From a virus (Duplodnaviria; Heunggongvirae; Uroviricota; Caudoviricetes), in the IMG/VR virus record IMGVR_UViG_2700989521_000020: a stretch of DNA of 40,488 nt; one strand, 5' to 3'. Within the stretch, counting starts at the first letter, position 1; each line of letters starts with the position of its first letter. The position numbers are program-made. This document shows, piece by piece, positions 12,001-15,000 of the stretch.

Positions 12001-15000
12001 GAGAGCTGGCGATCAAACGTTGGGCGTCAGGGTATGTGAGAATTTTTGACGAGGTAAATTTTCGATGGAAACCGTATTGCATGCACTGAAAGCGATGGGT
12101 AAAGCCAATTCTGTTGAACTGGCGGCGCGGCTTGATATCAGCCGTGAAGAAGTTCTCAACGAACTGTGGGAACTCAAAAAAAATGGTGTTGTTGATAAAA
12201 CGGGTCACACCTGGTTTCTGGCTGTCGAAGGTGAATCCGGGGTAACCGAAGGGCAGGCACTACAATCTGAAGCGCCGGATGTGGTAACCGAAGAGGTCGC
12301 TCCAAAAGTTAGCGCTGACATGATGATTGAGTTTATCGCTCAGGAGGGGGCTAAAACCTGTGAAGAAATAGCGGGTAAGTTCGGAGTTACCACTCGTAAG
12401 GTTGCTTCCACTTTGGCGGTAGTAACAGCAACGGGGCGCCTGGTGCGCGTGTCTATCAAGGGAAAATTCCGTTATAAAGTGCCTGACGTCGAAAACGGCG
12501 ATTTGAGCGCGTCATCATCGCAGGATGAGAATATCACACACGAAGCAGAAAACAGCGCGTCAGGCGACGAACTGAATCGCTTTCCGTTGATGTCAGAGGG
12601 CACGGCAAAGGCCTGTACAGATGAGTTTATCCGGGATGTTCCGTCGTTCACCGAAAAATATGCTGGTGCAGTGACCCTTCCACCTCTACGGGCCGCCAGT
12701 CGTGAACTTCGTCGCGCCAAAAAACAGGTCCAGAAGTGGGAGCGTGTCTGTGCTGCACTACGTGAGCTGAATAAACACCGGGAACTTGTCATGCAGATTA
12801 CCGATTCATCCAGCAGTATTGCATCGGAAAAGTGATAACTGGAGAGCTTATGGCAAAAGTATTTACACCCGAACAGCGGGAAGAACTGAAGGCACGTATT
12901 GTGGAGCTCGTGCGCCTGAATGGTCGGGGAACGTTCAGGCAACTGGCTACTGAAACCGGAGTCAGCAAGACAGCTGTCAGACGTTTGTCCAGAGAACTGG
13001 TTGTCAGTGGCGCTATATTCGACTCAGGTTATGGTTTATTCCCGTCTGATCAGGCGCGTAAGGACTGGCAAAATGCCCGCAAAAAACTCTCGAGAGCAAA
13101 GGCAAAGAAACCGGTTGTTATTGACCCTGGTCTTATCCGGGCATTACCTGATGGGGAAATCCGGCGCTACGACAGACGCTACAACATAATTTGTCGCGAG
13201 TGCCGTAACAGCGAAACGATGCAGCGTGTGCTGGCATTCTGGCGGGGGAGTGCAGAGGGATTGATGTTCTCCCCGTCGTGAATGACTGGGGCTTACGTGT
13301 TCAGAAAAGTGATTCATATAGAGGCTGAATCTGATCTTTTTTGTTCACGTCTGGCTGCCACCATTGCAGGCAGAGTGAAGGCGTAGACTAAAAACATTTC
13401 GGTAAAACTCAGGATCTGGCTTGCCTTAATTGGTGTGAAAACTTCATCTGTATGAACTGCTTTATTGGCATCAATTCGTACAATATGAGCCCATTCCTTC
13501 ATCTGTTCAGTGATCAGCCCTTTTTTGTAAATCATCTGAATACGTTGCGACAGCGATTCTTTTCCTGCTTCATCGCCGAGCAGTTTTTTCGTGGAGATAT
13601 CGAGGACTCTGCGACAAAGAATTACCACTGTGTCGTACCGCCTCCTCTGTAAATCCTCTTTTGCCTCAACAAAAGTACGGTCTGCAACCGGGGGCGTATA
13701 TTCTGGTGCGGTAATTTTTTTGACCGCAGGATAGATCTTGCGGAAACGGTACTGGCTATTTCCTGAAATCAGAATATCGAGGTCTTTTTTCTGGCTTTCC
13801 GCCATGGGGCCGTGATAGTGGTCTGATGGGATTTCAACAATAGCAACACCTCCTCGATGACAACTTCTGCATACAAAAGCGACGTTAAAAAGAGGTGTTT
13901 TTTCAATTTGTTTTTCGGCAAATGCCTCAATAACAGCTCGCTCTTTTAAACAGTGTGGGCATGTAATGTCAAAGGAGACTAAACTCATGGATATTCCTCT
14001 CGAAATTAAAGAAATTAACGAAATCATTGAGGTTACTGATCGCCCCGAGTTTACCCTCATGCGTCGTTATGAAACAGGAACCGACGAACAAAAATACATC
14101 ATGGTTGCAGCATTGGCTGTGATGGCGATAGAAAGGGAGCGGAGGGAAAAGGACGTAATGGTTATTCCGGCGAGAAATGATTCACCGGATTTGAGATGGC
14201 AGGATCCGGAGTGGGATGTGGCAATCCGGTGATTGATATTTCTCTGGGGTAAAGCGCCGCCAGAATGACGGCGCGGTAGTGGAGAGTTAAACGAAGCGGA
14301 TCTGGAGTTTTTTCCCTGTAGCACGGGCGAATTTTTTCAGTGTGGCAAATGATGGGCCGCTTATACCTGATGCAAGATTGCTTTCCATTCTGGTGATCGC
14401 AGTCGCTTTTGTTCCCATACGTTCAGCAACTTCAGCCTGGGTTAAGCCTGCTTCTTTTCGTGCTGCCAGCATTTCATCAAGTAGTGCGAATTCGTCGGCG
14501 ATGGCGTCGTATTCTGCTTTGAAAGCCGGATCCTCCATCCATTTGGCTGCCATTTCGTCGTGTGTCATGGTAGGTGTAATGCGTTTACCAGTCATGCTTA
14601 ACCTCCTTCATTCTGGCTTCAGCTTTTTTGCGTTCGGCTGGCGGTGTTTTCTGCGTTTTCTTAATGAAACTATGCAGCATAATGATGCGTTTCCCTGTCA
14701 GAGTGCAGTAAAAAACACGTGCAATCCCATCGTTGCCTTTAATTCTGAGTTCGAAAAGCCCATCACCAAAGGCGCTGGTATGAGGTTCTCCGAGATTGCT
14801 GCCGTATACCTTCATACGTTCAATGAGATGTTTGTATCGGACACGCATACTCAATGGAAGCTGATCGACTTCCAGCCGGACCTCTTCACTGTAGTATTCG
14901 ATAGTGTAGTTCATAGGTATCAACATAACAAATTTGTTATATGTATTCAAGGACTGTACTGTGTTGACGACAACACATATCAAGCAGACAGTCATGCTGT

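Follow-up and report, generated by a model that had tools for sequence, protein, structure and literature searches.

We analysed a 40,488-nt stretch of DNA, a virus record of the class Caudoviricetes (IMG/VR IMGVR_UViG_2700989521_000020), which is referred to below as the window, and examined a two-gene toxin–antitoxin (TA) locus on its minus strand. The window consists of chromosomal DNA from E. coli and shares 99.9% identity with strain 2012C-4502. The host element is a lambdoid prophage that converts to Shiga toxin (Stx) 1a production and is integrated in ynfG, and the TA pair lies antisense in its nin region, between the replication genes and ninB. An initial annotation of the locus, made from the sequence alone, had placed a toxin gene before an antitoxin gene, with an 11-nt overlap between them and a perfect 16-bp palindrome just upstream of the toxin start; all of these were found at the positions that it gave (Table 1). 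The toxin gene (MNYTI..., 109 aa) starts with the ATG at 14914, 10 nt past the end of the palindrome. An in-frame ATG at 14926, called as the start by PGAP (NZ_CP027440, C6W69_RS03605, 113 aa), lies inside the palindrome and the predicted −10 element, and was ruled out: two diverged copies (L003 and L005) have a TAA stop after it, and homologues begin with M[NKD]YTI. The RefSeq start of this identical toxin gene, C6W69_RS03605, is four codons too early.

For comparison, we fetched 80 loci with toxins 56–89% identical to that of the window, from Enterobacterales, Betaproteobacteria, Methylococcales, Thiothrix, Nitrospirota and others; together with the window locus they make a set of 81, in which 77 antitoxins were compared. 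The same arrangement, a toxin gene followed by an overlapping and co-oriented antitoxin gene of the XRE helix-turn-helix (HTH) type, was present in 77 of the 81 loci, the overlap measuring 4–17 nt in 74 of 77. No SecB-like chaperone gene follows the antitoxin gene, the next open reading frame (ORF) being a convergent 88-aa gene without a Pfam match, and no chaperone was found in the annotation of the identical region; the locus is therefore not a toxin–antitoxin–chaperone (TAC) system.

Table 1. Positions of the toxin–antitoxin genes and of the observed and predicted features around them in the window
Feature	Position	Strand	Basis
Toxin gene, Gp49/HigB-type RelE fold, 109 aa + stop	14585..14914	-	Pfam PF05973, homologues, AlphaFold (AF2), Foldseek
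Antitoxin gene, N-terminal helical region and C-terminal XRE HTH, 102 aa + stop	14287..14595	-	Pfam HTH_3, 6af3_B, AF2
Overlap of toxin stop and antitoxin start, 11 nt, ATGACTGGTAA	14585..14595	-	Sequence
Antitoxin Shine–Dalgarno (SD) sequence AAGGAGG, 6 nt before ATG, within toxin K-E-V codons	14602..14608	-	Sequence
Perfect palindrome ATAACAAATTTGTTAT, predicted antitoxin operator; core half-sites TAAC/GTTA at 14926-14939	14925..14940		Conservation, covariation
Predicted −35 hexamer TTGAAT	14945..14950	-	TTG conserved at fixed offset
Predicted extended −10 element TGtTATGTT (hexamer TATGTT at 14927-14922), overlapping the right operator half-site	14922..14930	-	Conservation
Predicted transcription start (+1), at the A of the toxin ATG or 1 nt before it	14914..14915	-	Inference from spacing
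GC-rich hairpin GCGCCGCCA-GAA-TGACGGCGC just 3′ of the antitoxin stop, weak terminator candidate	14254..14274	-	Inverted repeat
TA moron cassette common to different lambdoid prophages	14254..14981	-	82–92% identity matches

Families and predicted folds of the toxin and antitoxin

The toxin matched Pfam Gp49 (PF05973) with an E-value of 1.8e-25 (89.2 bits against a cut-off of 23.9). This was the only Pfam family reported at E ≤ 0.01, with no PF05015-type match, and the match to NCBIfam TIGR02683 was sub-threshold (21.3 bits against 62.85). Its homologues number 3186 and are nearly all 109–111 aa long with an M[NKD]YTI start, and PF05973 was assigned to all homologues listed; PHROGs places the toxin in phrog_2523, a family of unknown function. 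Among solved structures, the best sequence match of the toxin was S. pneumoniae HigB (6af3_A, E 8.7e-6) and the best PDB match of the antitoxin was HigA (6af3_B, E 1.1e-3), so that the best matches of the pair are partners in a single complex, S. pneumoniae HigBA 6af3.

The AF2 model of the toxin, with a predicted local distance difference test score (pLDDT) of 90.7 and a predicted template modelling (TM) score of 0.83, contains strands within residues 46–84 and a long C-terminal helix (92–108), the latter being typical of Gp49-like toxins (PMC9098466). Its top Foldseek matches were 6af4/6af3, 7awk and 7nbu, with TM scores of 0.73–0.77 for S. pneumoniae HigB and M. tuberculosis HigB1, which outranked YafQ, RelE, V. 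cholerae HigB2 and YoeB. Toxin residues E55, R57, R66, F83 and K85 are invariant in 36 diverse homologues; when aligned to 6af3_A with HMMER, they correspond to E66, R68, R73, F90 and K92 of S. pneumoniae HigB, the assignment of R66 being approximate with a gap nearby (the catalytic and core residues of solved HigBs are listed in PMC9098466). Gp49-domain toxins are reported to occur always in toxin-first operons and to lie far from the classical HigBs of P. vulgaris, E. coli and V. cholerae (PMC5906591). The label “HigB/HigA-like” chosen in the initial annotation is upheld as to the identity of the pair by the paired matches to chains A and B of 6af3, but needs narrowing: sequence comparison assigns the toxin to the Gp49/Tad-type HigB lineage and not to that of the E. 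coli K-12/P. vulgaris HigBs. By homology, the toxin is most likely a ribosome-dependent mRNA endonuclease.

The antitoxin matched Pfam HTH_3 (E 3.4e-11, 43.4 bits against a cut-off of 23), with the HTH at residues 44–98, and PHROGs lists it among transcriptional regulators. Its AF2 model (pLDDT 87.4) has helices at residues 12–20, 23–49, 53–60 (HTH helix 2), 64–76 (recognition helix) and 83–92. HTH residues are 80–100% conserved over the 77 relatives, at a median whole-antitoxin identity of 53%. The N-terminal helical region of the antitoxin is most likely the part that neutralises the toxin, and a dimer of the antitoxin most likely binds ATAAC-N6-GTTAT through the C-terminal XRE HTH.

A palindrome within the predicted promoter

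The palindrome ATAACAAATTTGTTAT consists of two 8-nt halves without a spacer and is unique in the window even when three mismatches are allowed. Perfect 16-bp palindromes as such are not rare at this scale: the window contains two, against a mean of 0.61 in dinucleotide shuffles, and 47% of the shuffles contain at least one, for which reason window-wide rarity was discarded as evidence. In an upstream region of 80–177 nt, just 0.3–0.6% of shuffles contain one. Since a 16-bp palindrome is not rare in a 40-kb window, the case for an operator rests on the comparison of relatives.

In 70 of the 81 loci, the core motif TAAC-N6-GTTA is present no more than 60 nt ahead of the toxin start, and only two copies occur in the remaining 276,519 nt. 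Its 3′ end lies 8–14 nt from the start codon, the distance being 10 nt in 44 loci and 11 nt in 18 (62 of 70). Among the 11 loci without the strict motif, 10 have variants at the same place, and in the last one (L070) the toxin start is misplaced or disrupted. In the six E. coli/phage copies the half-sites ATAAC...GTTAT are invariant and the central 6 bp vary (AAATTT, GATTTT, AATTTT or CATTTT). The motif also accompanies TA genes in non-phage settings, in chromosomes and metagenome-assembled genomes across phyla.

Three loci carry symmetric changes in both half-sites, namely TACCA...TGGTA in L020 and L047 and TAGCA...TGCTA in L043. T62 is substituted in only three of the 77 antitoxins (by S, S and V), and these are the antitoxins of the same three loci, which additionally carry T, T or S in place of K63 and S in place of A68. 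According to the AF2 model, the recognition helix is capped by residues 62–63 and includes residue 68. The probability of such a coincidence is 1/C(77,3), approximately 1.4e-5, if phylogeny is ignored, and the changes represent at least two independent events. Short of an electrophoretic mobility shift assay (EMSA), this protein–DNA covariation is the strongest available evidence that the antitoxin reads the palindrome, and it leads us to predict T62, K63 and A/T68 as specificity-determining residues. Taken together, conservation in 70 of 81 loci, placement within the promoter and covariation strongly support the suggestion of the initial annotation that the palindrome is an autoregulatory site, and it is very probably the operator of the antitoxin.

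Other candidate sites were not retained. No second exact TAAC-N6-GTTA occurs in the 40-kb prophage, and an antitoxin regulon within it was rejected: one-mismatch sites number 20 against 9.7 expected, and they lack the TAACA/TGTTA arms. An inverted repeat just upstream of the −35 element (TGTGTTG-ACGA-CAACACA, 14961–14978) was rejected as a second operator; its right arm is missing in the cassette copies of 82–92% identity, and it is probably not functional. A literature search for the operator sequence returned nothing but irrelevant primer matches. The only other perfect 16-bp palindrome of the window, TTTTACGTACGTAAAA at 20331–20346, follows a hypothetical gene downstream of Q at a distance of about 55 nt and precedes stxA1 by about 520 nt.

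In a motif-anchored alignment of the 70 loci, the flanks carried approximately 0 bits, with no conservation upstream of a TTG that we predict to be part of the −35 element. This TTG stands 11 nt before TAAC, with T, T and G present in 59, 56 and 52 of the 70 loci, respectively, and it is kept even where the upstream flanking homology breaks among the E. coli/phage copies, the break falling right at the −35 element in L003 and L005. The last T of the predicted −10 hexamer, four bases past the motif, is present in 69 of 70 loci, though it was outside the search pattern, and TGTTATGTT is invariant in the six E. coli/phage copies. The spacer between the −35 and −10 elements is exactly 17 nt; the palindrome fills it and overlaps the extended −10 element (TGnTAnnnT).

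Predicted start sites and the reading of the operon

The −10 hexamer is followed by the first base of the toxin start codon at a distance of 7 nt in 44 loci and of 8 nt in 18, among them the window. In those 44 relatives this base falls exactly at the canonical +1; in the window, the canonical +1 corresponds to 14915, and the toxin AUG opens with the base that follows, A14914. A pyrimidine precedes the start codon in 57 of 70 loci. The combined pattern TTGnnn-17-TAnnnT-6/7-RTG was present at 47 of 81 toxin starts, compared with 11 of 17,783 background RTG triplets. No SD-like 4-mer was found at −16 to −4 of any of the 81 toxin starts, as opposed to 76 of 77 antitoxin starts, where it takes the form GAAGGAG and is provided by the conserved K-E codons of the toxin. 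This difference, together with a start codon at the predicted +1 or +2, is why we predict from the sequences that the toxin cistron is leaderless (or has a 1-nt leader) and that the antitoxin cistron is efficiently initiated. To judge from the sequences compared, the design is specific to the subclade, because N15 gp49 has an ordinary SD sequence and no such palindrome. A previous study stated that it is unknown how a toxin-first operon keeps its antitoxin in excess and found no active internal antitoxin promoter (PMC5906591). TA operons of M. tuberculosis are described as predominantly leaderless (PMC3898074, PMC8485053).

We read the locus as a self-contained type II HigBA cassette of the Gp49/Tad type, carried as an antisense moron in the nin region, with autorepression through the palindrome, a leaderless toxin and an antitoxin translated from its SD sequence, and we give this reading a probability of about 0.8. 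The toxin, with its RelE fold and long C-terminal helix, would by homology cleave mRNA in a ribosome-dependent manner, and the antitoxin would neutralise it through the N-terminal helical region and place its HTH, as a dimer, on the palindrome. Transcription would proceed from a sigma-70 promoter (TTGAAT/TGtTATGTT) that has the palindrome in its 17-nt spacer and over its extended −10 element; binding there would thus shut out RNA polymerase, and the operon would repress itself. The predicted transcription start lies at the toxin AUG or 1 nt before it, giving a leaderless toxin cistron devoid of an SD sequence, and the antitoxin would be translated from the strong AAGGAGG located in the 3′ end of the toxin gene, across the 11-nt overlap. 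Leaderless initiation at the toxin and a strong SD sequence at the antitoxin would keep the antitoxin in excess despite the toxin-first order. A stronger claim, that the toxin cistron is obligatorily leaderless across the subclade with +1 at the start codon and that toxin synthesis is tied to 70S-type initiation conditions, is tentative, and we put it slightly below even odds. If it is true, the subclade would have a hard-wired and conserved way for toxin-first TA operons to keep the antitoxin in excess, and the module could be triggered in a lysogen by certain stresses or phage takeover that favour leaderless initiation.

Several observations weigh against parts of this reading, most of them against the leaderless start. 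Both promoter hexamers in the window are weak (4/6 each) and rely on the TG extension, and a consensus promoter scan did not call the proposed promoter, its sole site (15098–15071) lying outside the conserved cassette; the proposal rests on cross-species conservation and not on that scan. About one third of the relatives use GTG as the toxin start, the members from Enterobacterales all having ATG. GTG is a poor initiator on leaderless mRNA in E. coli. A plasmid-borne relative from Acinetobacter has its ATG 29 nt after the palindrome, showing that leaderlessness is not universal in the clade. These points, together with the ordinary SD sequence of N15 gp49 and the A/T-rich upstream region, would also fit a leadered TA mRNA that arises from a start a few to tens of nt further upstream or from another promoter, in which the toxin is translated independently of an SD sequence (for example by way of an A/U-rich leader and ribosomal protein S1) and the palindrome is still the operator. 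We regard a leadered mRNA as possible but unlikely. The spacing from TAnnnT to the start codon is fixed at 6 or 7 nt in 62 of 70 loci, a pyrimidine–purine step occupies the predicted −1/+1 in 57 of 70, and nothing is conserved upstream of the −35 TTG, where homology breaks in L003 and L005; the absence of SD-like motifs at all 81 toxin starts argues in the same direction. As for the operator itself, the covariation comes from only two to three independent events, and about 0.6 perfect 16-bp palindromes are expected per 40 kb, with a second one present at 20331–20346. That the palindrome is a chance AT-rich sequence, or the site of another regulator such as a CI/Cro-type repressor or a host factor, is nevertheless very improbable. 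The motif accompanies TA genes outside phages across phyla at a fixed distance to the toxin start, its symmetric half-site changes covary with the recognition helix of the antitoxin, and the prophage contains no second exact copy.

The activity of the toxin also admits other readings. Gp49-type HigBs without toxicity exist, namely HigB2 and HigB3 of M. tuberculosis (PMC9098466), and the HigB-like toxin SehA is not an endoribonuclease (PMC12817084), which is why the homology-based mechanism should be held loosely. In phage PhiR5_2, moreover, the toxin start may have been lost in a viable phage, as its sequence suggests, so that the toxin would be dispensable for phage viability. Together with a 71-bp antitoxin remnant in many Stx2a phages, the non-toxic HigBs and the PhiR5_2 start would suit a decayed or non-toxic module, kept as a selfish remnant or only as a pair of transcription factors. 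We consider such decay improbable for the window, where both ORFs are intact and of full length, given that the residues equivalent to catalytic ones are invariant in 36 homologues, that strong purifying conservation extends over the operator, the promoter and the antitoxin SD sequence, and that the Acinetobacter plasmid HigBs, apparently of the same subclade, are toxic RNases. Still less probable is an active toxin that is not a ribosome-dependent mRNase and instead inhibits, for example, an RNA-processing enzyme, as SehA inhibits RNase III; SehA gives this idea its precedent but belongs to another HigB lineage, and S. pneumoniae HigB and M. tuberculosis HigB1, whose catalytic residues are kept here, are RNases, as A. 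baumannii HigB2 is in vitro. Salmonella SehAB was, for its other HigB lineage and its different antitoxin architecture, not accepted as a close characterised relative.

Cassette mobility and comparison with known systems

Shigella phages POCJ13 and 75/02 Stx carry the cassette with 100% identity. Among E. coli it is rare: of 5426 complete genomes, 31 contain at least 80% of the 737-bp cassette. Copies of 82–92% identity match exactly window positions 14254–14981 (query 55–782 of 14200–15100) and lie in different neighbourhoods (L002, L003/L005, L004/L006): in RMDEC465 the cassette is flanked by ninE and antirepressor genes, in STEC299 and EC11 by a DUF4222 gene on one side and Rha/ash genes on the other, and in G6/7 and phage PhiR5_2 an ORF6N gene comes directly after it. 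By these sequence relationships, the cassette acts like a mobile moron equipped with a promoter of its own. The hairpin at 14254–14274 forms its left edge, homology in the other prophages starting at 14254. A terminator scan did not flag this hairpin, because just three T follow it on the minus strand.

The PhiR5_2 copy has ATA in place of the toxin ATG (L006 3659–3661), the rest of the ORF being intact. The short toxins of STEC299 and EC11 (L003/L005, 3332–3661) are an annotation artefact: PGAP called them at 76–87 aa because of overlapping Rha/ash gene calls, and the ORFs are intact and encode 109 aa. Many O157:H7 genomes and Stx2a-converting phages carry an unannotated 71-bp remnant of the antitoxin 3′ end (window 14285–14355; L088 2501–2571) with 94–96% identity. 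Its neighbours in O157:H7 M1300706002 are, on one side, a gene annotated as “HigA family addiction module antitoxin” and, on the other, a hypothetical gene and a ParD-antitoxin gene, in a region upstream of an ORF6N gene. The ATA of PhiR5_2 and the 71-bp remnant of Stx2a phages indicate that such cassettes turn over, and the nin-region slot appears, from the sequences compared, to be a hot-spot of TA cassette exchange and decay.

An AT-rich block (15092–16660, 26–36% GC against 42–52% in the flanks) separates the TA cassette from the ORF6N gene. It encodes proteins of 158 aa (phrog_19308) and 231 aa (phrog_21161) without a Pfam match and, on the minus strand, a DUF805 membrane protein, and it is absent from G6/7 and PhiR5_2, where ORF6N directly follows the TA pair. 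A DUF4145 protein (13314–14060, minus strand; Pfam E 1.2e-8; phrog_1305) adjoins the cassette; PADLOC matched it weakly to PD-T7-4 (E 1.7e-3), and its gene accompanies the cassette in G6/7 and PhiR5_2 and not in the other prophage types. No full-length match to a PADLOC-DB defence protein was obtained for the TA pair. Toxin residues 49–99 matched locally the C-terminal 50 positions of NsnC (E 2.4e-10), which does not point to membership in that system, and the PADLOC matches of the antitoxin were generic HTH only. A part in phage defence or prophage stabilisation, which the initial annotation mentioned for TA pairs in prophages, is for this locus at most conjectural.

Among characterised systems, the HigBA modules of A. 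baumannii plasmids (higBA1Ab/higBA2Ab; Jurenaite 2013, Armalyte 2018, PMC5906591) apparently belong to the same Gp49-type subclade. Their HigB is an RNase that inhibits growth (HigB2 degrades RNA in vitro), their HigA represses its own promoter, where HigB serves as co-repressor, and plasmids are stabilised by the module (PMC5906591). The copy on p3ABAYE (L089, A. baumannii AYE, 547–600) encodes a 109-aa toxin and a 95-aa antitoxin that are 62% and 48% identical to those of the window, and it shares the toxin-first order, the overlapping genes and a related palindrome over a −10-like element. Unlike the window locus, it is carried by a plasmid and not a prophage, its half-sites are TATCA-N4-TGGTA as against TAACA/TGTTA, with S63 and S68 in the antitoxin, and the 29 nt between palindrome and ATG imply a short leader. 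The link between this copy and the two assayed A. baumannii variants is our inference; the copy is a natural variant useful for a specificity swap and for comparing leadered with leaderless starts.

Tad-Ata and N15 gp49–gp48, the founder of PF05973 (Dziewit 2007, as cited in PMC5906591), are more distant. N15 gp49 is 44.6% identical to the window toxin over 84% of the query (E 2e-16), and the N15 pair has in common with it the toxin-first order, an XRE-type antitoxin and carriage by a temperate phage. It differs in having an AGGAGG SD sequence and no upstream TAACA palindrome, which place it in another subclade and ruled it out as a model of the regulatory region. S. pneumoniae HigBA (6af3/6af4) is the best solved match in sequence and structure for both partners, with a RelE fold, a long C-terminal helix and equivalents of E66, R68, F90 and K92 conserved in the window toxin; at about 20% identity and from a Gram-positive host, it was compared by its proteins. 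M. tuberculosis HigB1 (Rv1955) of the TAC system (7awk, 7nbu; PMC9098466) has the same Gp49-like fold, and as its structures include a ribosome-bound one, it may serve as the template for a ribosome-bound mechanism of the window toxin; its system differs by a third gene, for a SecB-like chaperone. Finally, paaR2-paaA2-parE2 of an O157:H7 cryptic prophage is a prophage TA system whose first cistron was found to be leaderless by rapid amplification of 5′ cDNA ends (5′-RACE) (PMC8630535) and sets a precedent for the layout predicted here, but its proteins (the ParE toxin and the regulator PaaR2) are unrelated, and its leaderless gene encodes the regulator and not the toxin.

As a TA cassette, the locus is ordinary, and automatic annotation already gives it as a type II toxin and an HTH protein. 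What the present analysis adds is a family-wide model of operator and promoter, predicted specificity residues and a testable hypothesis of a leaderless toxin. A family of more than 3000 toxin homologues thereby gains a testable operator, ATAACA-N4-TGTTAT, with its candidate specificity residues, and the layout of leaderless toxin and strong-SD antitoxin offers a concrete hypothesis for how the toxin:antitoxin ratio is set in reverse-order TA operons. As the cassette is carried by medically relevant phages, those that convert E. coli and Shigella to Stx1 production (POCJ13, 75/02 Stx), in a nin-region slot where TA genes are apparently swapped, it could affect lysogen stability, induction or the outcomes of superinfection.

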